Below are positions 1-63,760 of a stretch of DNA of 63,760 bases, in pieces. The notes beneath the pieces were generated by a model. It saw nothing but the letters and a program-made list of their open reading frames with translations. It did no database searches and had not been told where the DNA came from. How positions within the stretch are numbered: the stretch's first letter is position 1; every line of letters starts with the position of its first letter. The DNA lies in the IMG/VR virus record IMGVR_UViG_3300022700_000225, positions 1-63,760 of that record; one strand, given 5' to 3'. The DNA comes from a virus (taxonomy: Duplodnaviria; Caudoviricetes). The position numbers were made by a program, and so were the translations under genes.

Positions 1-99
1 CCGACGCGGACGTGATTGCCAGCAAACAGGAGCTGTCGGAGCTCAAAGACATTCTCGGCAACCGCTCTTTGGAGGATCACCGCAAGATGATCGCGGCCA
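1..99. repeat. 99-bp terminal direct repeat, left copy (circular assembly overlap)
   Basis: Identical to 63662-63760; lies inside a CDS that stays in frame across the junction. Confidence 0.97.
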
Positions 100-3692: not shown

Positions 3693-4520
3693 TTGGACGC
3701 AGCACAAAAAATAAACAGGCCAGCTCTCAGATATTACGGCGGAAAATGGAAAATCGCATCATGGGTGATTTCTCATTTTCCGGATCACGTGAATTACGTG
3801 GAGCCGTGCGGAGGCGCAGCATCTATTCTGATTGCGAAGAATCCGGCAAAACTCGAAACGTACAACGATATAGATTGTCGAGTGGTCAATTTTTTTCAAA
3901 TGCTCCGGTCCGAACCGGCAGCATTGATCGAGCAAATTCGGCTCACTCCGTGGAGCCGGGCAGAGTTCTATAGATCGAAAGAAGCGGATATAGATCCAAT
4001 TGAGGATGCCAGGCGTTTTTTCGTCTCGTGCTGGCAATCATTTTCAAAGCATGGCGGTAGCTGGCGGTCAATGTATGATTATTCGGCCCGACCAAGGTCT
4101 GCAACAAAAGATATTAAAGAGATAGACCATCTTTATTTAATCGCCGAGCGTCTAAAGTCTGTACAGTTCGAATGTCGTGACGCCATAGAAGTTGTCCAGA
4201 AATACGATACCGAAAATGGGTTGATATATTTTGACCCGCCATACATCCCCGAAGTCCGGGTCAATAAAAAGTATTACACACACGAAGTTGATGTTCAGTG
4301 GCACATCGATGCATCCAATGTTTTAAAAACAGCGAAGGCGCATGTTGTTGTTTCTGGTTACAGGTCAGGCCTGTACGCTGATCTCTTTGAATCTGCAGGC
4401 TGGATACGTAGAGACATAGCTACGGTTGCGAACGCCGGAGCCAAAAGAACTGAAAGTCTTTGGCTATCGCCATCCATACAGGCGGTAAAAAAAAAGCAAG
4501 AGCAAATGAATTTATTCTAA
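3693..4520 (+). CDS. Dam/D12-class N6-adenine DNA methyltransferase
   Basis: RYYGGK, YVEPCGGAAS, YNDID and catalytic DPPY motifs. Confidence 0.93.
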   Translation: MDAAQKINRPALRYYGGKWKIASWVISHFPDHVNYVEPCGGAASILIAKNPAKLETYNDIDCRVVNFFQMLRSEPAALIEQIRLTPWSRAEFYRSKEADIDPIEDARRFFVSCWQSFSKHGGSWRSMYDYSARPRSATKDIKEIDHLYLIAERLKSVQFECRDAIEVVQKYDTENGLIYFDPPYIPEVRVNKKYYTHEVDVQWHIDASNVLKTAKAHVVVSGYRSGLYADLFESAGWIRRDIATVANAGAKRTESLWLSPSIQAVKKKQEQMNLF

Positions 4521-4581
4521 GCAATCGGCCCACCGGACCTAACGGCCGGTGGCCTCAACCGCTGAAATACCCGGACAATAA

Positions 4582-7438: not shown

Positions 7439-10400
7439 TTGGAAGACTATTCTATTTTTCTAAAAGCTTTGAATTTTAATAAATCAACCTCTAATAGATG
7501 GGTGAGAAGATTCGTCTATCCCTCATCAGGGGAGTATGTCATTACCATTGATACCGCCAAACGGACTATTGATTATCCCAAGCCCATTATTTTAGGTGAT
7601 CGCACCACCAGCAACTTTGACCACCCGGAAAATTTTGTGGTGCTGGAGTGCGTATGCCGTTTGCTTGCAAAAGGCTACGATCCCGCCACTCTCATTCTGG
7701 AAAAGCGATATCAGGTTGGTCGTGGAGCATCAGGCGGCAAGAGTGACATTACCGTGTTAAGACGCACAACCGACCCCAACGATCAAAAAAACGCTTCGCC
7801 CTTGCTGATTATTGAATGTAAGACCTTTGGCGCTGAGCACGACAAGGAAATACAGAAAACTATAGAGGACGGCGGGCAACTTTTCGGCTATCTTGCCAAC
7901 GACCACAGCGCTACTCATCTCTGCGTCTATTCCTCTAAGCTGAATAACGAATGCATTGAATATCGCTCTGATATCATTCATGTGGAGGATACTCCTGAAG
8001 CTAAAGAAAAATTTGCCAAAAAAGAAAAGACCGATGGCTACACTGCCGCCCGCCAAGCCATACCGTTATTCGAGCACGCCCACAACCGAGAAACTTTGCA
8101 CCATGCCTGGAAAACCACTTACGACGGAACATTTCAGTCCAGCGGAATTTTTGAAGAGGAGTTTACTCCCTACGCCATTGGCTACATTCCTTGGCGGGGC
8201 AAAGACCTCAAAGAATTCAACGGACAAAACGGCAGCATTAGGGTTTTCAACAGTTTCATGGAAATTCTGCGCCACAATAATGTATCAGACAAGGAAAACG
8301 CCTTTAACCGCTTATGCGCTATTATTCTTGCCAAATTAATTGATGAAGATCGTGAACCCGCCGCTATCCTCGATTTTCAATGGTTCCCCAACAAAGACAC
8401 CGCTGAAGATTTGATTGATCGTTTGCAACGCCTTTACAAGCGCGGCATGAAAGAAACTCTGGGCGAGGAAATCACTTACTTTGAAGAGCGTGATATTGAT
8501 CAAGCATTTATCGTCCATCGGCGAGACATAGCACGCAATGAGGTTAAAAAAATCTTTCGCGCCCTTAAATTTTACACCAACAACGATTTTGCATTTAAGG
8601 AAGTCCACAACAAAAAACTGTTTGAACAAAACACCCAGGTGGTGCGCGAGATAGTGGAGTTATTTCAGGGCTATCGCATGAAATATACCAGCAAACAGGC
8701 TTTTTTAGGCAATCTTTTTGAGCTTCTACTAAACAGCGGTTTCAAACAGTCGGAAGGGCAATTTTTTACTCCTATTCCCATCGCCCGGTTTATTGTGCGC
8801 TGTCTGCCGTTGCGTGAACGCATGGCAAATGCCATTAAAGCAGGAACTCCCCACATCCTTCCAAAGATAACAGATTATGCCTGTGGCAGCGCCCATTTTC
8901 TTACCGAAATCATTGAAGAAATCCAAGAAGACCTCGACGTGCTGAAACGACCGGAGGCCAAAAATACCACTTGGGCGAGAGATCATGTATGGGGTATTGA
9001 AAAGGACTACCGTCTTGCCCGCACAGCCAAGATCGCCCTTTTTCTCCACGGCGCGGGCGATGCCAACATCCTCCACGATGACGGGCTGGACCATGCAAAC
9101 TCCATCCTGCCCAAACCGGGTACGGTGGATGTGTTGGTGGCGAATCCGCCCTATTCGGTCAAGGACTTCAAACAACACCTGCGCCTACAAAACAACCAGT
9201 TCACTCTGCTGCCACATCTGACCGCTAATTCAAGTGAGATTGAAATTTTGTTTGTAGAACGTTCCGCACAGCTTTTGGCGGTGGGTGGCATGGCCGGAAT
9301 CATCCTGCCCTCCTCCATTCTGAGCAACAGCGGTATCTATCAGCGTACCCGCGCCCTGTTACTTGAAAAATTCTTACTGCGCGGCATTGTCGAGTTGGGC
9401 GGTTCCGCATTTATCGCCACCGGAACTAACACCATCATCCTATTCATAGAGCGTCGTCCAGACTTCCATCGCGACCATTTCAGCATTCGGGCAGATGCCC
9501 TGTTTGACGAGGAGAAAAAACCCAAAGATGCTGATTATGCCGACAGCGACTTGCTGCGGGCCTACTGCGTAGCCGCCGGTCTTGACTTTACCGACTATTG
9601 CCAATGGTTGGCGGACCCACACGGTGAATTGCCGAAAGAATTGGAACAAACCCCCCTTTTTGCAGCTTATCAGCGCGAATTTGACGGCCTGGCCAGCACA
9701 AAAAGGCGCAAAGCGCAAGTAACGTTCAAAAAACTTCCGCATAATGATCAAAAAGCCGAACTGAGGGGAAAATTCCTCCGCCACTGCCGCGAAACCGAGC
9801 GAAATAAATTTTTCTATTTTGTCCTGGCGCATGTTGAAACATTCGAAAAAGGCGAAATAATTCCGCAACGCACCACCATACTGCGTGGCACGGGAAGTAA
9901 AACCGAAGAGCAAACCTTTCTCGGTTACAAATGGAGTCAGCGCCGCGGCTCCGAGGGGATGGTAAATTTGCGTGAACCTTACGACGGCGGACTACTCTAC
10001 ACGCCGGGCAGCGGTAGCCGGATTGAACCACCCACTAAGGCCGCCTACTATTTCCGCCATGCCTTTTTGGGGACGAAAGCGGATGGATTACCGGATGATT
10101 CTCCCCTTAATGGCAAGCTGCGCATCACTTCAACCTCCAGTTGTTTCGACTTCAGTCGCACCGCTTGCGACCTAGCCGTCAATCTATCGCCAGTCGAGGA
10201 AAATACCGCACCGGTGTTTGATACGCAGTATCCCTTGGTAGCGATAGGGACGATTACGGAAATACGCAACGGCGGCACACCTTCATCTAAAATTGCGGAT
10301 TATTGGGACGGTAATATTCCTTGGGCAACACTTGTTGATGTAAAACAAAAAGAAGTACATTCAACCGCTCGTACAATCTCTCAGTCAGGGCTGGAAAAGA

Positions 10401-10780
10401 GCAACGCACAATTATTACCAAAAAATACTGTTCTTCTGTCCAGCCGCGCAACCATTGGCGAAGTAGCTATAGCCCGTATTGAGTTGGCAACGAATCAAGG
10501 CTTCAAAAACTTTATCTGCAATGAGCATAAAATATTGCCGGAATACTTATATGAGGTTTTGGTTTGGCAAAAAGAAAATATTAAAAAACTTGCAGGCGGT
10601 ATGACTTATGGTGAAATCAGCAAAGGTAAAATTGCCAATTTCCTTATTCCTCTGCCTCCATTAGAAGTGCAACGAAAAATCGTACAGGCCATTGAAACTT
10701 TAGAAAAGAAGGCTGAAACCTATGTTATTAAGGATTTGGAAGAACAAAAGCGACAAATCCTGCTCGACGGCATCAGATGA
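7439..10780 (+). CDS. Fused restriction-modification enzyme (Type IIG / Type I-like: nuclease + N6-MTase + TRD)
   Basis: SDI...IIECK PD-(D/E)xK motif; GQFFTP, DYACGSAHF and NPPY MTase motifs; C-terminal HsdS-like TRD (GGTPS...SSRATIG..TNQGF..IPLPPLEVQRKIV). Confidence 0.92.
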   Translation: MEDYSIFLKALNFNKSTSNRWVRRFVYPSSGEYVITIDTAKRTIDYPKPIILGDRTTSNFDHPENFVVLECVCRLLAKGYDPATLILEKRYQVGRGASGGKSDITVLRRTTDPNDQKNASPLLIIECKTFGAEHDKEIQKTIEDGGQLFGYLANDHSATHLCVYSSKLNNECIEYRSDIIHVEDTPEAKEKFAKKEKTDGYTAARQAIPLFEHAHNRETLHHAWKTTYDGTFQSSGIFEEEFTPYAIGYIPWRGKDLKEFNGQNGSIRVFNSFMEILRHNNVSDKENAFNRLCAIILAKLIDEDREPAAILDFQWFPNKDTAEDLIDRLQRLYKRGMKETLGEEITYFEERDIDQAFIVHRRDIARNEVKKIFRALKFYTNNDFAFKEVHNKKLFEQNTQVVREIVELFQGYRMKYTSKQAFLGNLFELLLNSGFKQSEGQFFTPIPIARFIVRCLPLRERMANAIKAGTPHILPKITDYACGSAHFLTEIIEEIQEDLDVLKRPEAKNTTWARDHVWGIEKDYRLARTAKIALFLHGAGDANILHDDGLDHANSILPKPGTVDVLVANPPYSVKDFKQHLRLQNNQFTLLPHLTANSSEIEILFVERSAQLLAVGGMAGIILPSSILSNSGIYQRTRALLLEKFLLRGIVELGGSAFIATGTNTIILFIERRPDFHRDHFSIRADALFDEEKKPKDADYADSDLLRAYCVAAGLDFTDYCQWLADPHGELPKELEQTPLFAAYQREFDGLASTKRRKAQVTFKKLPHNDQKAELRGKFLRHCRETERNKFFYFVLAHVETFEKGEIIPQRTTILRGTGSKTEEQTFLGYKWSQRRGSEGMVNLREPYDGGLLYTPGSGSRIEPPTKAAYYFRHAFLGTKADGLPDDSPLNGKLRITSTSSCFDFSRTACDLAVNLSPVEENTAPVFDTQYPLVAIGTITEIRNGGTPSSKIADYWDGNIPWATLVDVKQKEVHSTARTISQSGLEKSNAQLLPKNTVLLSSRATIGEVAIARIELATNQGFKNFICNEHKILPEYLYEVLVWQKENIKKLAGGMTYGEISKGKIANFLIPLPPLEVQRKIVQAIETLEKKAETYVIKDLEEQKRQILLDGIR

Positions 10781-12437: not shown

Positions 12438-15400
12438 CTACATCCCTGCCCGCTGCCTCAGCCTTTGCGCATACGGCCGCAGATATTCCGGCGGCTGCCG
12501 GCCCTGCATCCGGGTGGCAATCGAGTGTTTCAGGTCAATGATATATTCAAACCGGCCCCGTTCTGCCTGTTCCCGGTTCCAGTCCGCGACTTCTTTGGCA
12601 ATTTTGCGCACCTCCTTGAAATCGCCCTCATGCACGGCCTTTGCCATGCGGTCGGCAAAATTGCGCTGCTTTCTGACCTTGTAGGCCCGAAGATCCCCGA
12701 TCTTCTGAGTCATTTCCCATGACTTCTGATTTTCCACAGGCTGAAACCCGAAGGCTTTGGCTATCGCCTGGGGTGCAGTAATCCGCCTCGGTTCCACTTC
12801 TCCGGGCAGCACAATGGGCCGGCCCGTATGCGTGTAAAGCCCTTCGGAATAGGCCCGGTGGGCGCGAATCGGGTTGGCGATCACCGGCGGCAAAATGCTT
12901 TCAAGCGCCCGCAGCGGGTCCCGGTTGTATGCCGCGGTCATGGTGCGCTCAATATCGACCAGCATGGAGTAAGGAATGCCGATTGCTTCGGCAAAAAGCC
13001 GGGCGCCCTGCCCGGTGGGCGACTGATCCACCCGGTATCTTGACAAAATGGGCAGCTCCATGCTCATGGAAGATCCCAGGGTGGTGCCGCCGACAGTGGG
13101 CAAACCGTATAAGGCCATGTCCCGCACCCAGTCCATGTCCTCATCATCGGGCAGCAGCTTGTCCACGGTCTTTTCCTCCCAGTCATCGCCTGTGAGCTGC
13201 CGCATCATCGCCATGAAGGTTTTATACAAGGGGAAGGACGTCAGGCCGCCGAACGCCACCACAGCCGCGAGCGAGCGCATAAGCGCCCTCTGGCCGGAGC
13301 CGCCCTGCTTCCACTGCCATTTCCACAAAGACAGCAGGTTGTGGGTGAAAAACCGGAATGTGTAACCGGTGCCGGCCACGTACCGGACAATCGGAGACTT
13401 GTCGGCCCGGACCAGCTCGGGCCGGTTGTGCCGGCCAAAGTCAAAGTTGGTGTCTGTGTTGATCTCGCTGGCAAAGGCCATTGCCTCATCGTATGAAAGC
13501 GCTTCGCCGGCCTTTTTGTTAAACTTCTTCAAGGTCTTCGGGTTGGTGATCTTGCCTTCCCGGGCAATGTTAAAGGCGGCCAGCCCCACGGTGGTCCGGT
13601 TGAACCGTTCCGATATGGCCATGGGAATGCCCAGCAGCTTGACAAACCGGTCCCAGCCGGAAGCTACCGGGTCCCTTGCAATCTGGCCGGAGACTTCTTC
13701 TGTAAACTGGGCGCCGGACAACCCCTTTTCATAAAAGTCATGCAAAAACCGCCGCTGCTCCATGGTCAGGGTCTTTTTGCCGTTTAGCGCGTCTGTCAGC
13801 ATCTTGCCGGTGGTGCCCAGATAGCGGGAATTGGCCCGCTTTGTTTCCATGGACAGCCGGGACGTGCCGGCCACAATCACCTGAGTGAGGTTCAGCACCG
13901 GGGTTTTAATCGATGCTCCCAGGTACTTGGCAAAAAACAGGGACTTCATCCAGGCAATACGCTTGTCGTGCTGATCTGAATTGCGCAGCATGTCAGACAC
14001 ATAGTTTTTGGACGCCTTGTAGAGCTCCGGGTCTTTTTTTGCATCCAGGGTGGCCAGTATTTTGGAATAATCCCGGCTGGCCTCCATCTTGGTCATCCAC
14101 CCGTTGCTGCCGGTCAGATACCGGTAGAGCACCTTCTGGATGTCCCGTTTTTCATGGCCCGGGATGTCGTGCTGGCGGATGGTGTGCGCCCCGAATCCCC
14201 GCATCTTCAGCACGTCTGCCACCTTTTCGGGCAAAATCTGCTCAAATGCGTGGGCAAGATCCGGACCGGCCTGCTGGGCCGCGGTTTTCAGGATCTGTGA
14301 AATGGCATCTGTGGGAATCGGGGTGTCATAGATGGACTCCTCGGGCAGGTTTTCGTTTCTGCCCACCTTGACTTTCATGTTTTTGAACTCGGGGTATCTG
14401 GCAAAGATTTTTTCCAGCTCCTTTGCCGCTGCCCTGCGCTGGCTCAAATTGAGCCTGGCATCAAAATGGGACCGGAACACCACCTCGCCTTCCTGATCCC
14501 GGATCTGGATATAGTGATTGCCGTAGCGCACATGCGGAAAATAGTTTTTCTTGTACCGGGCATCCTTTCTGAATTGATCAATCTGGTTGCGGTCCACTTC
14601 CGATGAGCGGGCCAGCAGGGCGTCAATCTGGGTCCATTTGTTGTCCAGCACCCGGCGGACCTGCACCACTTCTTTGGCAACCTCTTTGGAAACGCCCAGA
14701 TTTTTTACGATCCAGTTTTCCAGCGCCGGATACGCCTCTTCATTGACCTGCAGGCCCTTTTCCGCATCCACTATAAGGCTGTCTGGCACGCCCTTGATGT
14801 CCTGGCCGTCAATGGTCCAGATCACGTCCCGCACCGCCTCCAGGTTTTCGCCCCGCAGCTTCCAGAAGGAATCCAGGGTCACAACGTCTTTGGTGTTTAG
14901 ATCGTTTCGGGTTTCAATGCGCTTTTTGGTGCGGTCATAGAGCTTGCCGAAGGCTTCCGGATAATACTTTGCCATCCATTGCGGCAGCATGAGGGCCCGC
15001 TGCGTGACCCGCATTTTCTTTTCGTCCTTGCCGAAAGTGACATTGGGCGGCAGGTCTCCGGTGCGCAGGAAGTGGGCAAATTCTCTGTCAGGATTTTTGG
15101 GCTGGTATTGTTCGTCACCCCAGGCGGCCCGGCGGATTTGCGCGCCGGAATGTCTTGTCTTTTTGACCGGAGCGCCGTAATCGGAAGCCTTGAGGCCGGG
15201 CGGGAGGTCGCCGGCGCGGGCAAAGCGGGCGCCTTCTGATCCTGCCGGAGGGGTTGTCCCGTCGGGAAGGGAGGTTAAGTCTCGATTTTTGGCCGTGTCG
15301 GTTTTTTCAGAGGGCTGCCGGGAGGCTACTTGCTCTTGAACAGATCCTTGAACTTGCCCCGCGCCTGGTTCGATACCTGCCTGCCGTGCTGCCGCAAGGA

Positions 15401-18400
15401 TTCGATCTCGGAGGTCGTCAAGCGAAGGCTGTCTTGCAATGTAGTGGGCTTCTTTTTGGGTGAGGGCTTCGAGCTTTCCGGCGATGTTGTGTTCCCGGAG
15501 GAATTTTTCTGTTTGCTGTCTGCCATGTTTATCCTCGATCTTCTTGATGATTTGCGTATCTGGCTTGATTTTACTGCCGTATATGCCGGATGTCAATGCG
15601 GAAACAGCCGCCACCTCTCCGCCGTTGTTTTCGATGAAGTGGCGCAGTTCAGACATAGTGCCGCCCTGCCCCAGGGCGTCGTCTATAAGAATGTACTTGC
15701 GTCCGGCCTGGACCTTGCCGTCAAATTCGGGGCGGGCAACAAGCCGGAGCGGGGAGTCTTTTTCTGTGCGGGCTGCCCGGTTGGACTGAACGATGTCAGT
15801 GTTTACCTCGAATCCGGCATCCCTGTAAGCCTCCGCAAGAACACGCGGAATGGCATTTTTTCCGGCCGCCTCTTCGGCATGAGGGGCCACCACAACCGCA
15901 TCCGGATACTGTTTTTTCAGGTTCAAAATCTTTTCCGGCTTGACCAGATCCCGGACAAGGCTGATTGCAGCCCTGGCGTCTCCGGCCTTGGCCTTCTTGT
16001 ATTCCGGATGCCCTGTCAACTTGCTCATGGAGGTGTGCAGCGTGGCATTTGCAAAATCCTTGGGCCAGGACTTAACTGACGTGCGGGCAAAGCGGGTGTC
16101 GGGGCTGGCCGGGTCAAACGTGCCCTGGTTTCCTGTGGCGGATTTGATTTGTTCGGGCTCAAAGGCAACATAGACCCCCGCATGTTGCGCCTCAAAATCT
16201 TTGACTCCATCAAAGTCTGTTACAAGCCCGCCCACGCGCTCATCGTATAAGTCCACATAGGCAGAATCAAACTCATTGGTTCGGAGGCTGCGGTTTTTGT
16301 CTATCTTTACCTGGCCTGTTTTTTTGAGCGTCTCTTTTTGTTTGGCAGTAAGCCGGGTCGGCTCTTCGTGAACATACCCGTCAAAGCCGCTTTCTTTTAA
16401 CCGGGCAGTGATTTCCCGGGTCGTATATTCTTTACCTTCTTTTGATAATTGATTTATGGCTTTAGCAACATCTTTCTTGCTGGCAGGATTTTTAATGGAA
16501 AGATAAAATGCCCGGGTTTCACTGTCGGGCGCATTGGGCCGGCCCCATGGTCGCCGCCCGTGCATATCTGCATCTTCCCGATTCCCGGAGAACCAAAAGC
16601 CCATTACTGGGGCATCAGGATCATGGGAATTTATTTTGCTCTTATCAAATTCAGAGAATCCCGGCGTCGGGCTCCCATGATAGACGACCAAGGGCCCGCC
16701 GTTTTCATCCACCACCTTGGAGGCCTGATCATGCTCTGCCTTGACTTTTCCCAGCCATTGCTTTAATTTTTTATCCATAGGGCCGGATTGAGCATTGATC
16801 CCCGGCGCCCTAATGCCGGCAAGATGATGCTCCGATTCGGCCCTTGTTATTTCCACGCTGGAAACAAAAGCATTGTGCAGCTCGTTTCCTTCCGGCTTGC
16901 TGGCCTCTCTGACGGTAAAGCGGACCCAGTAATCTCCCGTATCCGGATCATTGACCTTTGACAGATAATTGTGATGGGCAATGATGTTGTTGTGTTTTGC
17001 CGGATCTCGTTCGCTTTCCGAATAAATGGGCTCTGCTTTTTCGAGCAGGGGCTTAAACTGCGGTATGATTCTCAGCATCAAGTCCCGCTGACGATGGCCG
17101 AGGATCTTTTTAAAAGCATTGGTTACAAAAAGAATCCTTCTGCCGTCCCGCTGATTGACCGCACTGCCGGCTGCTTTGTATGCCTTGCGCGCAGATTGCT
17201 TGTCCACTGCTGCCGGTTCAATGGACATGGCCGGCATTTCAATCACCCGTCTGTATTGCTCCGCCGATTCCCAATCGCCGAACCATTTCTTGAAATATTT
17301 GGACTGCACGCCCTTTTCGGCCCATTCCCTCCGGGCCTCCGCCCGCTGTGCAGCCTCCGCCCCGGCCTCATCGGATCTGGCAAACCGCACCCCGGCCTGA
17401 TCGTCATAATAAACGGTTGTCAGCACCTCTTCGGGGTTCTGGCCCATTTTCATCAGGCCTTCCCTTTTGAGCATCGCCTCCAGGGTCTTCCATGGTGGCT
17501 CCGCCTTGCGCTTTTCCGGCGACAGCTCCAGGCGCTTTTGGGTCAGCCGGGCCTCGGCCTCGCCGGCCAGGGTAAGGTAGGCATAGCCCCGGGCCACGTA
17601 ATCGGCTTCGCGCTTCAGCTTCACAGCTTCCGCATTGACCTTTGATCGTTGATCCCGGTCCTTGATCTCCATGGCGGTGCGGACTTTGCTATTGGCTTTC
17701 CGGTACAGCTGTTCCGCCCTCGGCACGCCCCGGGCCGGTTCCACGGATGACATGCTGCCGCCCCTGGCAAAGCCCTCCCGCCGCTGAACCGCGTGCTGGA
17801 GTTCGTGCAAAAGGTGGCTTTTCAGTTTCGATGCCGGCACCTGGGAGCCAACCAAAATGCTCTGGTTGTCATGGCTGTATCCGGCCCCGGCTTCGTTGAC
17901 GGGGTGGACCCCGACGCGGATATCCATTAAAGACGGATATGCTTTAAAAAGCGCCGGCGCCTCGATCAATTCATTGAGTTTGAAATATCCCTTTTCCCCG
18001 GCCACCTGCTCTATCACGGCCTGGAAAGGCATGCCCTTCTGGTTGATCCGCCGGTTTAGCCGGACCTGTCCGCTGTCGATTTCAAAGCTCCACTGGCCGG
18101 GCACGATCTCCCACCAGCCGGTTGTCTTCCAAATCTTCTCCCGGCTTGCCGTGCCTTTTTCCTTTGCCAGCTTGGCTTTTTCCAGCATGCCGGTATCTGC
18201 GGTCGCGGCCTTTTTGCCAAGGAACAGAAAACGGGGATCTGCCTTTAAGCCCTGGCCCACAAAGCCGGTTTCGCCCTTTTCAATCACTTGATCCGCCCGG
18301 GAAATGACCATGCGCAGATCCGCCCGGGTCAGCCCTGTGTTGGGAAACAGCTTTCGCACCCATGCGGCAACCCTGGAAACAAACCGGTCAAGCAGGGTCC

Positions 18401-21400
18401 CGGTCTCGCCGGCCCGGATCTTTTCCACCAAAACCTCTTCTGCGGCCATGGCCCGGTTTTCGGCAGTCCCGGAAATGTTGTGCTTTTTTAAAAAAGCGTC
18501 CACGTCGCGCTTGTAGCGGGTGGCCACCTTGCCGAAAAACGCCTGCTTGCCCTTGCGCCCCCCAAGGATCTGATCCAGGGCCAGGTGCCGGCCTTCATGC
18601 CGCAGCAGCCATTCCACATGGGCTGCGGCCATGGCATCCGGGGCGGCAATGTTGTCTGCCACAAAATAGAGCCTGTCTTTGTGGAAAACGCCCAGCCATT
18701 CACCCGACATGCCTTCGGCCTCGATGGTGTCCTGCAGGGTCTTCGGAAGCTCGGATTCATGGTTTAAGATCTCGATCTTGCCCTTGAGCCCGGAGTAAAG
18801 CTCGCCTGTGGCTGCGTCCATTATCTTGTGCAAAACGCTTTTGGGCACGGCCGCACCTTCGGGCACCCGGCGGGCGGTTCTGGCAAAGCGGGTTGAGCGC
18901 ATCTGCTCCCACCGGGAAAAATCCTTGGCCTCTGTATCGTCTGTTTTTTCTTCCTCGGCGCGAAGCTCCCCCAAGACTTCTTCGTGTCTTTTCCAGGCCT
19001 CTTCTAACCGGCCCTCCTGCTCAAACGGGGCATCCACCCGTTCCTTGAGTTTCGGCAGCTCTTTTTTGTTTTGCTCCAGCTCTTTGGCAAGGTCGTCTTT
19101 TAGGGATTCGGCATTGTTTTCGACATAATTCACCTTGTTGTTCATGCGGGAGAAAAACCCGGTGGCTGAAAATTTGTCCGCAAACTTGCCGGTGCCGTCA
19201 ATGACATAGCTTGGCGGGAACAGATTGCCTTTCCGGGTATAGACGTCATATGCCTTGAATTGCGGCTCCAAAACGACCGCGCTAAAATGCCGGGACCGGG
19301 AGGCGTCAAACTCAACGCCCCGAAATGTGACGGTAAATTCCTTTCCGGTTTTTGCTGTCTGCTTCAAGGCTTTTTCAACAGCATTGCCGGCCGCGTCTTT
19401 TGCCCTTTTTAATGCGGACTCGTTGGCTTCGCGGGCAGCCTTGACCTCTTTTTTGTTCTCCCTGGTCTCTTCGGACACCGGAACCAGGTTTTCGGCCCTG
19501 TAGGTCTTGCCGTCCACCGTGATTTCCCAGCCTTCCGGGCTGTCATCGCGGGGATTGTTTTTGACGGTCTCCAGGTCCGCGTTGATATCAGCGGTATAGT
19601 CATCATATCTTTCCTGGAAAGTCTCAATCGCTTTGATCCTGCCCTGTGCGGAAAATCGTTGAGACCTGTGGTTGCTGCGCAGGGACTCCAGTTTCCCGAT
19701 CTCCTGGCGCAGCTGGATCTCTTCCAGGATCAGTGGGTTTCCGGATGCAGCAGCCTTCATGTCGGCCGCATTGGCCGCCTCGCCCACAGAGTCTTCTATG
19801 GACTCGCCCCACTGGTGGTTGCCGGCCCGGAGTTGCTCAATGCTTTTGGCCTTTCGCTCAATGATCTGCCAGCGCCGGGTGTCAAGCGTTTCCTTGGTGG
19901 AATACCGGTGAATGCCGACTTCAAAAATCCCTTCGCCCTTTTCGAGCTTTTCCTTGAAAAACTCGTTTCCCTGCCGGATGATCCTCCCTTCCCGCTGCTC
20001 CAGGTCAGAAGGACGCCACGGGGCGTCTAAGTGGTGAAGGGCCACAAGTTTGTTTTGCACATTCATTCCAGCGCCCATCTTGGAGGTCGAGCCAATCAGC
20101 ACCCGGACCCGGCCGGCCCGGACCTTGCCGAACAAATCCGCTTTCTGCTTGTCGGTATTGGCGTCATGGATAAAGGCAATCTGGTGCTCCGGGACTCCTT
20201 TCTGAATCAGCTTGGCCTTGATGTCGTCATATACGGAAAAGTTTGAATCTGCGGCAATCAGTTCTCCAAAAGAGTATTTGCCGAGCTTTTCGGTTAGCCG
20301 GTTGTATTTGTTTTCCAGTTCCACCGCATTCTCCGGGCTTGCCGACTCCAGAGCCTGCTCTGCCTCCCGGATCTGTCCGCGCAGTTCATTGATCTCCGCT
20401 TTATGCTTTGACGCAGCCTTTTTAGGAACTGACAAATCACAGAAAACAAGCTGTGCGCCCTTCCTGTCATTCCATTGCTGGTAGGTGTCATAGATGTTTT
20501 CAACTGCCAGGTTGACCTTGGAGCCCGGAAAATCAGGCAAATTCGGGTCAATCAGCCGGATATCAAGCGCGGCCTTCATGGCCTCGCCCGTGGCTTTCAG
20601 CGGGTTGTCTTCTCTGGGGTCTTTCGGCATGTTGTCCATGCGGTGAACAATCCAGTCCATAAAGCTCTTCTGGTCCTCGGATCGTTCGGCCACAACGTTT
20701 TCCGGCTTGCCGCCCTTAACGTTGGGGACAGGCCACACATTGCCCTGGCTTTCGGCCCACTCCCGCAAATCTTTTGTGGAAATAACGTCTGCAAAGTCCT
20801 TGTAGATGGACATCATACCGGGCACGTTTTGGAAGGTCAGCTGCGATTGGAGTTTATACCGGGTGCCCGTAGCGTCTACCTGCCAGTCATTTTGAACGCT
20901 GGCAAAAAGATTTGCCCACTGGTCAAAGTGAGCTGCTCCCATCTCCTTTAGCTGGCCATAGGACATATACCGCATCATGGTATACATCTCGGCTATTGAA
21001 TTGGAAACCGGCGTCCCGGTCAGGAAAAATACGCCCCGGCCGTTATTCGCCTCCTGCAGGTATTGGGTTTTGACAAACAGATCAAAGGCTTTCTTTGACC
21101 CGGCCGGGTCTCCAAGGCCGGCCACGCGCGTCATTTTGGTGGCATAAAACAGATTTTTAAACTCATGGGCTTCATCCACAAACAGGGCGTCCACGCCAAG
21201 CTCTGAGAAATCCACGACATCGTCTTTGGTTTTGTCGGACAGGGCTTCGAGCTTTTCCTTTATTCGGTCCCGGGCTTTTTCCATCTGCTTGACCGAAGGC
21301 GTTTTTTTGCCCTCTTCCTGGGAAAGCTCAAGGATGGCCTCTTCGTATTGGCTGATTTGCTCCTGGTAAAACTTCGCCTGATGCTCTGCCGGCATCTTGA

Positions 21401-24400
21401 TAAAGCCAAAGGAGGAATGCGCCATAACCACCGCATCCCATTCTCCCGTGGCAATGCGACCCAAAAACTCCTGACGGTTTTTCTTGGCAAAATCCTTTTT
21501 GCCGATCACAAGGACATTGGCCCCGGGATATAGCGTCTGGAAATCCGCCGCCCATTGATCCACCAGATGGTTGGGGACTGTATACATGGGTTTTTTTGCA
21601 AGCCCCATCCGCTTCATTTCCATGCCGGCCGCGATGGCTGCAAAGGTCTTGCCGGAGCCCACAACATGGTCCAGAAGGCCCTTGCCTTTCTGGATCAACC
21701 GCCATGCCACGTTTTTCTGGTGATCCCGCAGCTGATTGTCCCGGCTCTGGCCGGCGTTGATAATGCCCATGCCGGGAAAGATCATGTGGGAGCCGTCAAA
21801 AGTTCCTTCAATTGTGGTGTTGACTTTGTCATTAAACTCTTTGGCCGCAATCTCGCGGCGGTCCATATCTTCCAGGACCCAGTCCTGAAAAGCCTTGTTC
21901 ATCCGGTCAGCCGCGTCTTTGGCAATATCGGTTTCTTTTTTGTTGAGATAGGTCTTGCCGTCATCGTCTTTGTCCCGGACAACAATTTCCCGGCCTTCCA
22001 GGTTTCTTTGAAACAGCTTCTGTGCTGACATCCGCCGGGTTGAAAACTCTGTCTCGCCGGTGGGCCGGCCAAGGGCTACATGCCATTGGTCAACGCCTTC
22101 TGCATATTTGATTGTGGCCGGCGTTTTCAGCACTTCTTCGGCAAATTGCTCGTAAATGCTTGTCGGCATCCAGGGGGTGCCGATCTTGAAAAATATTTTA
22201 TCCGGAGGGACATCTTCGGGGATAACCTTTTCCAGGGCCTTGATATTTTCGATAAAAGCCGGATCGTCCTGGGCCGCCTCTCTTGCCTCGGCCAGCTTCT
22301 TTTTGACATTGCCGGACAAATAGGTGTCCGCAGTTTCCCATGTCTCTGACGCCGGATCTTTGAAAACAAGGCCGCTCAAGTCTTTTGCGGCCTGGGCCGC
22401 AGAAGCGTCGTAAAGGTCCGCAATGCGGTCCATGCTGACCGCCCCGTCTTCGCGCAAAACAACGGCAAGGGCTTCTTTTGCGTCCTTGGCCTTTTTTACC
22501 GCCCGGTAGGGTTCTCTTGTCCGGACAGAAAAAATAGACGCTTTCTCCGCCTTTGGAGGCCGGGCCTTCTCCCCTGTCTTTTTTGCCTGGGCTTTGGATA
22601 TTCCCGGGTCAAAGTCTTTTTCCAGAGACCGCAGCAGCGGGAAGTCCGTTGGATCGTCCTTCATCAGGTCCTTGTTGGCCGGCTGATTCAGATATCCATG
22701 ATTTTTGACAAAGGCGTCATAGGACTGGTTTAATGCCTTGCGGTAATCTTGCATGCGCGGGTCATCGGCAATCTCGGCCCGGATCAGCCGCCGCACCGCG
22801 TCTCGTATTTTCATAACGCCTTTAAACCGCTCAAGCCGCTTGCCTTCCAGGGGCTTGCCGGCATGCAAAACCGGTTGAAAAACCTGCCGCCCCTCCGAGT
22901 CCGGCAGCCGGCGCACGGCCTGCCCGTTATCGTCAAGCGTATATCCGTAGGGCTTTGCAAAGCCCGGGTCTGACACAACTATTTCCGGGCGCTGCACTTC
23001 TTCAAAGGTCTGCCCCTCCTGGTAAACATTTTCAGGCAGGCGGGAAAGAGCCTTGTCCAGATCGGCCTGGGTATATGTCCCGCTTAACCCGGCAACCGCA
23101 TCATAAACGCCGTCCACCACTTTGCCGGGAAACAGCTTGTTCGGGGCCAGTCGGCCCAGCATCATTTCCGGATGATTTGCAAAATACTCATTGATCCGAT
23201 AAACAACTCCGTCTTTTTCGCTGGCGACATCCTGGAGATTTTGCCACTTGTTACCTTCAATCTTTTCGCCTTCTGCCCGTTTGCGCATAAAAACCAGATC
23301 GGTTGTAACATCTGTCCCAGCCGTGGATCGAAACGCAGTGGAGGGCAGGCGGACCGTGCCGAGCAGTTCGGCGTGCTTGTTGAGCCATTGCCGCTGTGCG
23401 CCGCCGGCTTTGTCCATCATGTGAGAAGACACCACCATGGCCAGAAGGCCGTTTGGCCGCAGGGCCTTAATGCTTTTGGCAAAGAAATAATTGTGGATGG
23501 AAAAGTTTTTCAGGTCTTTGTGTTTGGGGTCATGCAGCTTTTTAGAGCCAAACGGAGGATTGCCGACAACCGCGTCCTTGGAGTTCGGAACAATGTCAAA
23601 ATCCTGAAACGCCGTGTGGGCAAGGTTTTGATTGGGGTACAGCAGCTTGGCAATTTTTGAAGTAAGAGGATCAATCTCAGCGCCGGCAACATGGCTTTTG
23701 CTGCGCATATCGGCCGGCATCAGGCCGACAAAATGCCCGATACCGTAAGCGGGCTCAAGGATTTTGCCGCCCTTAAACCCCATCCGCTGCAGGGTGCTGT
23801 ATATACCCTGAATAATGGGCTCGTTGGTGTAGTGAGCATCCTGAGTAGTTGACCGGGCGGCCTCGTACTCTTGCTGGGTGAGCAGGTCTTTTAACTCTTT
23901 TGCCTCTGCCTCCCAGCCTTTGGCGACAGAACCGTCCGGACGGTAAAAAGCCTGGGGCAGCCCGCCCCAGCCCACATATTTGACCAGCTTGGCCTGCTCT
24001 GCAGGAGTGGCGTAACGGTCTCCGATTTCTTTAACCAGGCGGAGCGCCTCCAGGTTGTCTTTAAACTTCTGCTTGGGCCCGCCTTCCCCGATCCTGTCTT
24101 CGGCGGTGATTTTATAATCTACAGGGCGTAAAGGTCCCTGACCACCACTTCTTCCGCTTCGTAGTCCCTCATCCCGCCGTCCATCAGCTCTTCTTTCTGC
24201 TCCATCGCCTGCTCGCCCTTCATCTTGCAAAACGCCTTGAGATCCCCCGCTTTCCTGAGCCTCTTGTAAAGCTCCGGATCTCTCTCCGGAAGATTGTTCA
24301 TCAGCTGATGCGCGTATCTGTTCATCTGATACCTCCGTTTCTGTGGTTGCAGCCTTCCTTTTATCATTAATAATATCAGATATTTCGCTGGTGTCAAGTT

Positions 24401-27400
24401 CTTTTATGTTGGCCGGATCTGTCATGCCCTTGGCGTCAAAGCCGGGGTAATGGCGCACCGCCTCATACCAGCTTCGCAGATACGATTTTACCGCCTCGCC
24501 CAGATCGGCCATCATGGCCTTTGAATAGGCGGTAAAAGACCTGGCGCCGGCCTCGATATGATAGCCGGCCAGCTGAATGCCGGCCTGCACGATTTCCGGG
24601 TCCAGCCCTGTGCTGACCTGCCCCAGTTTTTTCCGGAGCAACTCCCGGGCCTTGTCTGCGGCATCCCTGGTAAAAACCGTGTTGGTTTCGCCATAGCCGG
24701 ACTCTTGGGCTCCACTTGTTTCAGCAGGAGACGCCTGCTCCTGTGCAGACGCCTCCGCGCTCTGTGTCGAAACATCAGAGGGGGTTTGCGTTTGCCCAGC
24801 CTCACCCTCGCCCAGATGGGGGGTCAGACGGTCTTTTTTGTCCTGGCTTAAATAGTCCCAAAGCGTTTTGGAAAGCTGTCCGGCTTCGGCATCAGAATAT
24901 CCTGCAGTTTTGGCCGCCTGATACCGGCCTTCACCGGTCAACTCGTTGCGCCACGCCTCTTCAGGGATTTTTGCGCTCTGCCCCTCGGTTTCGGCTGCCC
25001 GGCCAGCCCGGTCAACTTCTTCGACAAGCTGCTCGCGGGTTTTGTCCCTGGTGTCGATCCCTTCCTGTTTTGCCACCTGCCGGGCTTTCATTAGGTGGGC
25101 TCGCCAGCCGTCAGGACGGGCGGGTGCCCTTTCTTCGGCTTTGGCTGAAGCCGCCCCCTTTTCAGGGACGGCTTCGGATACCGTTTCAGCGCGTGGCTGA
25201 TCGGCTGATTTGAATCGTTCCACTTCCTCATTGGTCAGGTATTGTGTACGGCCTTTTTCGTATAGCTGTTTCGGAGACTTGACCCCGGCCTCCGGTCCGG
25301 CTCCGGGCACTACATCGACGGGGGCCTGAATCCGGACTCCGTTTTCAACAATAAAACGATTCCCTGCCTTGTCCTGGTAAACGGTCTTGCCTTCGGAATT
25401 TCTACCAACTTTGCCGAATTTTTTTCCGCCGGGTGCCGTTTCAGACAATGCCTGACCTTTGCCGCCTCCAGAATCGTCCAATTTTGCGCTTCTGGCGGCT
25501 TTGGCCTGCAAACCCGCATCTGGCGATGGTTTATAGTCGCCTTCCTCGGCTAAAATCTCATCCATGTCCTGCTGACGGTCCCGGGCAGCCTTTCTTATCC
25601 GGTCCTGGGCCGGGGTGATCCCCCGGGCCTCGCGCGGGCCTTCCAGTGAAGATTCATCCGGCAGGTCTGACAGGTCGGCGTCAAATTCGTCAACTCTGCG
25701 CCAGCCCCACTGATCGTTTCCAAGGTCCACGGGCTCGACGGCTTCCCCGGCCTTCTGCTTGTCGTGCACCAGCTTGTCAATGCCCTTTTTGGTATAGGGC
25801 TTGCCGGACTTCATCACGGCCACGGTGCCGGGCAACGGCTCGCCGGCTGACAGCTCATGGCCGGTATCAATCGTACCGGTTTCGGCCCGGGCCTCTGCGT
25901 CGGCTTCGGGCGTCCGGCCTTCTGGTTCTGCCTGGGACCGGGTTGCCGGGGCGGATTCTTTGCGTGTTGCCGGCACATCTACCGCCTGGGCAATATAAGG
26001 CTGCGGCAGGTTTCTGCCATACAGCTCATGGAGGTGATACAGGGCGTAGGGGTCGCGCTTTTTGGCGTCATTGACATGATCCCGCAGCTCGTTGACCTGC
26101 TGCCAGCCCGGGTCATTGTTGGGTTTGCCCCGCATTTTCCGGCGCATGGATTTCAGGGCGGTCTCGGCGTTAAAGATCACCTTGCGTTCGTCTTTTTTCA
26201 GGTCCGGGGCCTGGCCCTCGGCTTCCGTCAGCTGCGCGTCGGCCCGCTCCTGGTCGGCAATGTCTTTGTCCAGCCCGTCCGGAAACCGGTCCTGCTCTGC
26301 CGGAATGTCGCCCGCGGCCTGGGCCTCGGCCCTTTGCTGCCGGGCCGCCTCCTGCCGGGCAGTGAAAATTTTGGCGTCAATGCCGTCAATCTCATCCTGG
26401 ATCTTTTTCTTTGCCGCCTTGCCCCGGGCCTTCTGCTTTCTGGCAACCGCGTTGTTGCGCCGGGCCTGGAGGTTTTCCACGCGCTTTTCATATCGCGGGG
26501 CCTGCCGGGCGAGGGCTTCTGCCTGCGGCCGGGTCTCCTGCGCCGGCCCGGCTTGCGGTGCGGGCTGCTCTGCGGCTGCCGGCTCTCCCATCTGATCCAT
26601 GGCCTGCTGGTTTAGCTTTTGCCTTGCCAGAACCGGGTCATTAATTTGCTCGGTCTGCCCGGCTGCGGCCCGGGCCTGCTCGGCAACCCCCCGGTTTTCC
26701 GCCTCACCCATCAGGCGCACCATCAGACGGTTGGCCCGCTGGGCCGTGTTCTGATCCGTGCTTTGAAAAGACTGTGCGGTGGCCCCGATGGTCTCCACCA
26801 GTTCATCGTCAGACATTTCCCGGACCACCCGGTCGGTCCAGTCCCGCTCGGCCTGTCCGGCCGCCTGTGCTGTCTGCTGCGCAAGGTCTTTTTCAATGGC
26901 CTGGATCTCTTCTTCTGTGGCCCCGGCCTTCTTTGCCTCATCAATGACCTTTTTGCGCTTCTTGTCCAGGGCCTCCACGGTGCTGCGGCCAAACACGCCG
27001 CCGGCCATGCCGCCTGCCCCGGCTCCGCCGATAATGGCCTCAACAATGCCTTCGGTGAGGTTCCGGGTTTTGTCATAGCCTATCTTGGCAATCGTGTTTT
27101 GCCAGAGGTTTTGAGACGCTTCCTGCATCCCCTCTTCTGCCCCGCCGTTGGCAATGCGCTTGATTGCGCCTTCGGCCGCTTCCTTGCCGGCGCCGCCAGC
27201 CCCGGCCCGTTTCAAGATCCGGGAAATGGGTATGTATTCCAGCAGGGCGGTTCCCATGGTGGAGGCCAGGCCGACACCGGAAGCATACGCCTTTCCCTTT
27301 CCGGCCTCCCGCGCCTCTTCATACTGTGGTGCGCCTTCCAAAAGTCCAAGGGCAGTCGCGCCGCCCGCAGCCCCAATGCCTTCAGCAGAAAGCCCCTTTG

Positions 27401-63176: not shown

Positions 63177-63760
63177 AAACTTCAAGGGCGTCAAAAGCCT
63201 TTACCTGGATCTCCAGGGCTGCGACGCGGCCGTCTACGGCAGCAACGCCACCGGAAAGACCACAATTTACGACGCCTTTCTGTGGCTATTGTTCGGCAAG
63301 GACTCCCAGGGAAAGGCGGATTTCGACATCAAAACCCTGGACGAAAACAACAACCCCATATCCGGCCTGGAACACGAAGTCGAGGCCGAGCTGGATATCT
63401 CCGGCGAGGCCCTCACCCTCAAAAAAGTATTCCGGGAAAAGTGGACCAAAAAGAAGGGCGCGGCAACCCCGGAATTTACCGGCAACACCACGGAGCATTT
63501 CATAAACGGCGTGCCGGCAAAGAAAAAGGAATGGGACGCCAGGATAGCCGAAATCACAGATGAGGAAACCTTCAAGCTGCTTACCGGCTCCAGGTATTTC
63601 AACGAGCAGCTCCACTGGCAAAAGCGCAGACAAATCCTGCTTGCTGTTTGCGGGGATGTGCCCGACGCGGACGTGATTGCCAGCAAACAGGAGCTGTCGG
63701 AGCTCAAAGACATTCTCGGCAACCGCTCTTTGGAGGATCACCGCAAGATGATCGCGGCCA
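63142..63760 (+). CDS. SMC/Rad50-like ATPase, N-terminal part (continues at position 100 on the circle)
   Basis: Translated by hand: MKTIRLNNLRLKNFKGVK...GSNATGKTTIYDAFLWLLFGKD (Walker A); open to the contig end; absent from the ORF track. Confidence 0.9.
   Translation, partial: MKTIRLNNLRLKNFKGVKSLYLDLQGCDAAVYGSNATGKTTIYDAFLWLLFGKDSQGKADFDIKTLDENNNPISGLEHEVEAELDISGEALTLKKVFREKWTKKKGAATPEFTGNTTEHFINGVPAKKKEWDARIAEITDEETFKLLTGSRYFNEQLHWQKRRQILLAVCGDVPDADVIASKQELSELKDILGNRSLEDHRKMIAA
63662..63760. repeat. 99-bp terminal direct repeat, right copy
   Basis: Identical to 1-99. Confidence 0.97.

Follow-up and report, generated by a model that had tools for sequence, protein, structure and literature searches.

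The viral record IMGVR_UViG_3300022700_000225 (Caudoviricetes; 63,760 nucleotides, analysed over its whole length and called the window below) encodes on its minus strand a giant polyvalent protein of 5,247 amino acids (aa), here called P0001. In this protein the tetrapeptide RFAR stands at four borders that follow four unrelated modules. Comparison with other giant proteins identifies RFAR as the local form of a junction peptide that is widespread in polyvalent proteins and specific to each of them, and points to selection acting on the protein. We tentatively read the RFAR sites as processing sites, which would be cut near the R/F bond by a zincin-type peptidase built into the same chain.

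RFAR at the borders between modules

An earlier note on this DNA, made from the letters of the sequence, had listed the four RFAR sites together with a related RFLF and had placed all of them at module boundaries. The coordinates proved correct, the plus-strand strings (TCTGGCAAAGCG, TCTGGCAAACCG and, twice, GCGGGCAAAGCG) are as it gave them, and the five sites coincide with borders that were set independently of the motif, from Pfam and PHROG matches, alignment ends and model confidence. The modules and sites are as follows, in their order along the protein.

12438-28181, minus strand: gene of the giant polyvalent protein P0001, an open reading frame (ORF) of 5,247 aa
19968-23789, minus strand: N6-adenine methylase and SNF2/ResIII helicase core, aa ~1465-2738 (Pfam Eco57I, N6_Mtase, SNF2-rel_dom, ResIII and Helicase_C; N6-adenine methylase at aa ~1465-1636, SNF2/ResIII at aa 2150-2343, Helicase_C at aa 2656-2738)
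18879-18890, minus strand: RFAR-1, aa 3098-3101, separating the helicase tail from the first HExxH module
18234-18878, minus strand: HEGRH module of an unnamed family, aa 3102-3316, with HEGRH at aa 3195
18222-18233, minus strand: RFLF, aa 3317-3320, a junction-type R-F joined onto the first beta-strand of LPD23 itself
17388-18233, minus strand: LPD23 and IrrE-like zincin module, aa 3317-3598, with HELQH at aa 3459 and GEAEAR at aa 3540 (Pfam LPD23 at aa 3320-3375, E 4e-14)
17376-17387, minus strand: RFAR-2, aa 3599-3602, within a predicted disordered linker
16095-17375, minus strand: LPD3 and ART-PolyVal module, aa 3603-4029 (Pfam LPD3 at aa 3664-3765, E 2e-10; Pfam ART-PolyVal at aa 3825-4022, E 2e-23), ending in the tail IKSATGNQGTFDPASPDT
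16083-16094, minus strand: RFAR-3, aa 4030-4033, at the border of ART and phosphoribosyltransferase (PRTase), where alignment ends and starts cluster
15228-16082, minus strand: KfrC-like PRTase module, aa 4034-4318 (phrog_22413, E 7e-56), with a confident fold to about aa 4276
15216-15227, minus strand: RFAR-4, aa 4319-4322, in a predicted disordered linker ahead of the conserved C-terminal region
12441-15215, minus strand: C-terminal region, aa 4323-5247, with no named domain and 85% identical to the close relative P0005

The borders were located in part by alignments to other giant proteins, for which we took the best 120 of 394 found at E<=0.001 with a query that included the zincin module. 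Alignments of the ART module in these 120 proteins stop at aa 4028-4037, those of the PRTase begin at aa 4021-4042, and the longest alignments of LPD23 begin at aa 3316-3320. For aa 3300-3625, an AlphaFold model that rests on 43 aligned sequences (mean predicted local distance difference test, pLDDT, 83.6) predicts disorder up to the R of RFLF, then a first strand F-L-F-L-G (block mean 94), and disorder again at aa 3591-3606, the stretch that holds RFAR-2 (pLDDT <50, model residues 292-307). In a second model, of aa 3560-4420 (mean pLDDT 64), both RFAR-2 and RFAR-4 lie in stretches with pLDDT <50, the surroundings of RFAR-4 scoring 30-38 over model residues 730-799. Low confidence ends there at residue 470, and the R of RFAR-3 is residue 471, the first of a confidently modelled PRTase fold in which most blocks exceed a pLDDT of 90. 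In the model RFLF thereby differs from the RFAR sites, since the LPD23 fold opens with F-L-F-L-G as a beta-strand, and both RFLF and RFAR-3 may be structural module starts.

By comparison with stand-alone proteins, the motif also coincides with the natural ends of modules. When the conserved zincin tail '...DVP...QIVR' lies at most 25 aa from the end of a protein, the chain stops 0-2 residues past its Arg in 9 of 20 cases; when the tail is internal, F, M or L comes next in 14 of 32, for example in QIVRFSVA and QIVRFARARAM. On the downstream side, position 10 of the profile of the stand-alone PRTase family phrog_22413 aligns at aa 4042, two of three plasmid KfrC-type proteins, IncP KfrC, begin with M/L-S-S-[FY]-S-R, and fused PRTases (P0391, P0007, P0020) carry [FY]SR or RYSV ahead of their WP..F motif. 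Because the upstream unit thus ends at an Arg and the downstream unit starts near an aromatic residue, the R/F bond is the proposed scissile bond. A hydrophobic residue directly past the cut would suit a thermolysin-type zincin. The idea that the motif is a conserved N-terminus of stand-alone PRTases was weakened, since 0 of 12 short PRTase homologs, several of them truncated, begin in this way.

Junction peptides in related giants

The tail IKSATGNQGTFDPASPDT of the ART-PolyVal module of P0001 is conserved in short ART-PolyVal proteins and recurs in the giant relatives as '...IKSA.GN.G.FD..NPDI'. In many giants R[FY]S-x comes next, and in others the peptide after the tail is TFS[LIV], Y[HKQ]Q[IAS], FNQI or L[NAD]Q[SA]. 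The same tetrapeptide is found after non-ART modules of the same protein as well, and directly ahead of LPD23, as in '...EDVAREDQIAI FNQI AGKRGAANLD' (P0012), 'SSNTES YKQI IGIGGARRLD' (P0019) and 'QQVSEM LSQF AGPKARTAN' (P0244). The giants use different dialects of the junction peptide (RFSx, TFSL, YHQI, FNQI and LNQS, with RFAR in P0001), and the form is uniform within a chain. For the 22 proteins with at least three ART-tail junctions, identity at positions 1-3 was 0.711 within proteins versus 0.305 when junctions were shuffled among proteins, and the former value was reached in 0 of 5000 shuffles. In P0001 every one of the four sites is RFAR, a form that is rare elsewhere: among 60 R[FY]-type junctions in other proteins, A occupies position 3 in two and R occupies position 4 in three. 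A short conserved peptide at the joints of unrelated domains, and a protein-specific form of it that non-ART junctions share, are two features expected of a self-processing polyprotein.

A search with the LPD23-zincin module against 1.84 billion representatives returned 7,903 proteins at E<=0.001, and in the 147 best new ones 169 starts of LPD23 could be placed. The residue just ahead of A/G-G at these starts is F in 140 of 169, an F that belongs to LPD23 itself. The occurrence of junction-type residues upstream of that F differs with the size of the protein, these residues being present at 76 of 111 starts in proteins of at least 1000 aa versus 2 of 42 in proteins below 700 aa (Fisher p 1e-13). 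The same trend holds after the ART tail, where, in the giants and short ART-PolyVal proteins taken together, R[FYW][SAT] was found in 20 of the 117 tails that have 40 aa or more downstream versus 2 of 73 with fewer (p 0.002), some of the short proteins perhaps being truncated by contig ends.

A candidate peptidase within the chain

The best candidate for a built-in enzyme is the LPD23-HELQH module, in which an HExxH helix (HELQH, aa 3459) is followed downstream by a glutamate (GEAEAR, aa 3540), the combination expected of a zincin-like metallopeptidase. Its residues H160, E161, H164, E242 and E244, that is, those of HELQH and the glutamates of GEAEAR, are invariant in the 43-sequence alignment, and a GEAEAR glutamate is the putative zinc ligand. 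Compared with the sequences of the PDB, the profile of the module found IrrE at E 0.0029 across ~45 residues covering the strand-turn-strand-HExxH core. Pfam DUF6782 scored 19.7 bits on the module, the cut-off being 27; the top Foldseek rows for the zincin model are weak and comprise IrrE/PprI (E 0.15) and minigluzincins; and a wide VIA structure search with this model was filled by the helical hairpin at residues 184-234. Docking of the module with zinc and a 45-aa peptide spanning RFAR-3 gave a score of 0.01 and a mark of 0.32, which speaks neither for nor against cutting.

Stand-alone LPD23-zincin proteins (P0305, P0310, P0380, P0383 and others) have a strongly conserved C-terminal tail, '...PPW.T.DVP...QIVR', often the last residues of the protein. 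This tail might occupy the enzyme's own cleft, an idea suggested by minigluzincin zymogens among the weak Foldseek rows.

As endopeptidases, IrrE/PprI and ImmA cleave a repressor at a single defined site. Strand-turn-strand plus HExxH of these zinc metalloproteases (PDB 3dte and 8slm) aligns to the LPD23-zincin profile at E 0.0029 and 0.051, respectively; the match extends over ~45 residues only, with no significant structural match, and unlike IrrE and ImmA the module of the giant proteins has its own N-terminal LPD23 part and GEAEAR helix.

The earlier note had called the first HExxH module (aa 3102-3316) a metallopeptidase as well. This label is not supported: its basis is the HEGRH string, and the module matches unnamed Atlas clusters and no Pfam or PHROG family.

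A processing model and its alternatives

In the model that we tentatively favour, the giant protein would be made as a single chain, probably be packed in the capsid and ejected along with the DNA, and then be cut in its flexible linkers, at or beside the R/F bond, by the built-in zinc peptidase, with the IrrE-like LPD23-HELQH module as the best candidate. About five products would result: aa 1-3098 with the methylase and helicase, the peptidase block, LPD3 with ART, the PRTase and the C-terminal region. The earlier note had offered cleavage sites for embedded HExxH peptidases as one of two explanations of the motif. This proposal was strengthened by the border position, the dialects, the natural ends of the modules and the predicted linkers around RFAR-2 and RFAR-4; the motif, its border position, its recurrence across the family and its dialects are shown, and what we infer is the cutting itself, the position of the bond and the identity of the peptidase. 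Processing of polyvalent proteins into units by their metallopeptidases (MPTases) was proposed in the main text of PMC5512222 (Iyer et al. 2017).

Several points weigh against such processing. Cleavage has been observed neither for this protein nor for any related one, and according to the main text of PMC5512222 the MPTase-bearing N4 vRNAP, ArdC and TraC1 are delivered uncut. The zincin fold was not confirmed by structure search, Foldseek against the PDB returning no match at E<=0.001. The co-occurrence that speaks for processing, at least one IrrE-like LPD23-zincin module in 106 of the 120 giants (TFSL proteins of the Akkermansia type included), is inflated because the zincin was part of the search query. 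Of 211 proteins of at least 1000 aa, five have no HExxH at all; four of these, the P0094 group, lack an LPD23-zincin and yet retain TF[AS]L junctions. RFLF and, less so, RFAR-3 are modelled within the downstream fold (block mean pLDDT 94 and 76, respectively). Finally, some of the uniformity of junctions within proteins could stem from ART modules having been duplicated in tandem; that of P0001 cannot, as its sites follow four unrelated modules.

The peptide could instead be a structural cap or strand at the end or start of a module that insulates neighbouring folds, the giant working as one chain that is never cut. We consider this unlikely, even though it accommodates some of the models well, as the F-L-F-L-G that comes next to the R of RFLF is modelled with confidence as an LPD23 beta-strand and the confident PRTase model begins at RFAR-3. 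Stand-alone proteins, too, keep the tail ahead of the motif (IKSA.GN.G.FD..NPDI) and the zincin tail (DVP...QIVR), and N4 vRNAP and ArdC are reported as uncut in the main text of PMC5512222. A structural role fits poorly with an identical tetrapeptide after unrelated folds, since a fold-specific cap is not expected to share one protein-specific form across unrelated modules. RFAR-2 and RFAR-4, moreover, lie in predicted disordered linkers, and the junction-type residues are largely missing from small proteins (the 2 of 42 and 2 of 73 given above).

A second alternative keeps the peptide as a signal and changes its reader, which might be a protease or chaperone of the host, some other protein of the phage, or the machinery through which the chain is threaded in packaging or ejection. 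The TF[AS]L junctions of the P0094 group, which stand in chains without any HExxH, are in its favour, and dialects could follow the host lineage as well as a built-in enzyme. Against it, strings of the forms RF[ASLV][RF] and R[FY][AS]R are absent from all other likely genes of the phage, the portal, capsid and scaffold-position genes among them, their only other occurrences being in antisense or short frames. The 20 neighbouring ORFs that were compared with PHROGs gave no match to a head-protease family. The motif class is also present in both phage-type and conjugative-element-type proteins, which would share no virion machinery, and we hold an external reader to be rather improbable. Processing of capsid cargo by a head protease was considered separately and is unsupported, as the motif is not in head proteins and no such protease is among the ORFs scanned.

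Returning to the built-in zincin, we put forward, with somewhat more reserve than for P0001 itself, the idea that polyvalent proteins of phages and conjugative elements are true self-processing polyproteins, with a lineage-specific code of 3-4 residues at each joint that would be read by a co-evolving IrrE-like LPD23-zincin of the same chain. If this is true, the exact effector fragments of thousands of mobile elements would be predictable from sequence alone, giant proteins of phages and plasmids that lack annotation, in their thousands, could be divided into working units by one rule, and the addition of new effector cassettes without disturbing their neighbours would be explained. The idea of cutting after injection dates from 2017 and has been without a defined cut site until now; with a junction peptide legible in the sequence and a candidate peptidase that has a name, it becomes directly testable. 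No paper that we found names a junction motif in polyvalent proteins, and the main text of PMC5512222 appears to define neither a cut site nor a junction peptide, its supplementary alignments lying outside the scope of this survey. A polyvalent protein of 2,811 aa was detected in virions of phi24B, and the accessible part of that report does not mention its processing (10.64898/2026.04.10.717836).

The comparison extends to other self-processing systems. MARTX toxins cut between their effectors with their own cysteine protease domain, and sites of viral 3C/3CL proteases and the motifs of the T4 gp21 and phiKZ head proteases are further examples of processing at short peptides. The logic resembles that proposed for P0001, with many activities per chain, a short conserved linker peptide and dialects that match the protease. 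Unlike in these systems, a zincin is the candidate enzyme, the chain would be a virion or ejection protein of a phage, cutting is a proposal and the motif is not in the head proteins of the phage.

Module gain and loss, and the DNA around the sites

P0005 is the sole close relative of P0001, 64-85% identical across the collinear parts; scans of viral contigs and genome contigs gave no further close relatives, and metagenome scans gave one distant locus of 3.9 kb (L004). P0005 has RFAR at three of the four sites and RFVR at the fourth, the equivalent of RFAR-4. RFAR-1 is kept as an island, none of the 20 residues on its left being identical in an ungapped comparison. An extra module of ~185 aa starts in P0005 exactly past RFVR and closes with a degenerate copy of the motif, ASFTYA, where P0001 has ARFARA. 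The LPD3 module is present in P0001 and absent from P0005, and this indel breaks at FKKWFGD / KQWLGK, ~35 aa downstream of RFAR-2. The earlier note had suggested that breakpoints of module gain or loss might map to RFAR, and this was borne out in part, by the extra module but not by LPD3. As an evolutionary pattern, the comparison of the two proteins indicates that modules are gained and lost at conserved short motifs.

Two observations concern the modules themselves. The extra module of P0005 (aa ~4350-4530; '...Y.P.KTV.AYKL...PLFI.KN...') is also found after the LPD23-zincin in P0254 (aa ~460-520) and looks like an unnamed mobile cassette. The LPD3 module of P0001 (window 16746-17294, aa 3630-3812) is flanked by two copies of a second short motif, FKKWFGD and KQWLGK. 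ART and LPD3 modules usually start with this motif ('F..WFGDSKVVD'), which acts as a second kind of joint.

Such exchanges raise the possibility that the sites are recombination joints, short shared sequences that let phages swap cassettes and of which the peptide is a mere footprint; this was the other explanation in the earlier note. The insert of P0005 between RFVR and ASFTYA is what it predicts, as are alignments to other giants that start and stop at the motif. At the DNA level it is not supported. Over 45 nt to the left and right of the five sites, identity is 18-42% (ungapped), versus 27.5 +/- 7% for random in-frame pairs from the same gene. Identity is confined to the 12-nt cores, which among RFAR sites agree at 9-12 of 12 positions and differ synonymously, the first Arg being CGC or CGG and the last AGA or CGC. 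TTT (72%) and GCC (53%) are the commonest Phe and Ala codons of the P0001 gene. With flanks at background, synonymous differences in the core and this codon bias, the likeness of the DNA follows from that of the peptide, which argues for selection on the protein and against microhomology joints. The LPD3 indel breaks at the other motif, and conservation at the amino acid level spans very distant proteins, so that we regard recombination joints as highly unlikely.

The weakest alternative, that a very long protein rich in Arg and Ala repeats a tetrapeptide by chance, is extremely unlikely, as every RFAR is at a module border, three are kept in P0005 and the motif class is family-wide. The count by itself is suggestive, only moderately convincing and not decisive. 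RFAR occurs four times versus 0.099 expected from composition (Poisson P(>=4) = 3.7e-6), and in 300 shuffles of the protein any 4-mer with at least four copies and an expectation of at most 0.1 appeared on average 0.027 times per shuffle, with a maximum of one. EEVL, however, also occurs four times (0.135 expected), at aa 2015, 3067, 3248 and 3584 and with no obvious tie to module borders; the bare count is thus weak evidence, and position and comparison carry the case.

The giant gene in its genome

An exact direct repeat of 99 bp is present at both ends of the window (1-99 and 63662-63760). From this repeat the window has the look of a phage genome that is complete and was assembled as a circle, of 63,661 bp (63.7 kb); no tRNA genes were found in it. 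The P0001 gene takes up 25% of this genome, and PHROG scans placed genes for the small and large terminase subunits, portal, major head and head-closure proteins upstream on the same strand.

By its domain content P0001 is a textbook polyvalent protein as defined in the main text of PMC5512222: it joins methylase, SNF2 helicase, LPD23, LPD3, ART-PolyVal, PRTase and HExxH modules in one chain, is phage-encoded and adjoins virion genes. At least two disparate activities, including LPD domains, are thus present in this chain (by Pfam matches and, for the PRTase, phrog_22413), and the portal, head, head-closure and terminase genes lie near it on the same strand. Along its N- and C-terminal regions P0001 is collinear with phrog_10089, a profile of 4647 positions annotated, as distinct from tested, as 'DarB-like antirestriction' (E 3e-41 and 8e-20); between these collinear ends, P0001 differs from the phrog_10089 giants in having another set of cargo and RFAR junctions. 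The methylase and helicase core resembles DarB of P1.

Further matches concern the two ends of the chain and the PRTase. The N-terminal region (aa 1-1400, window 23982-28181) matches the N-terminal profile positions 215-602 of 3406 of phrog_2206, 'virion RNA polymerase', at E 1.5e-11, and aa 1128-1264 match part of the long 'endolysin' profile phrog_938 at E 4e-29; these matches may reflect a shared packaging or ejection frame. The PRTase module (aa ~4034-4276) is 37-40% identical to KfrC-like plasmid proteins. For the C-terminal region (aa 4319-5247), neither a Pfam match at E<=5 nor a PL.RFG-like string was found, and the name 'PLxRFG region' that it had been given was dropped. The segment after RFAR-4, 'RFARAGDLPPG' (window 15195-15227, aa 4319-4329), recurs ~50 residues on as 'EFAHFLRTGDLPPN' (15045-15083, aa 4367-4379), and KfrC proteins have 'VVRNGDLGSL' at the position matching this repeat.

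A second large gene (7439-10780, plus strand, 1113 aa) has PHROG matches of the DNA-methyltransferase type (phrog_2713, E 2e-37; phrog_13671, E 3e-12), besides the methylase within the giant protein.

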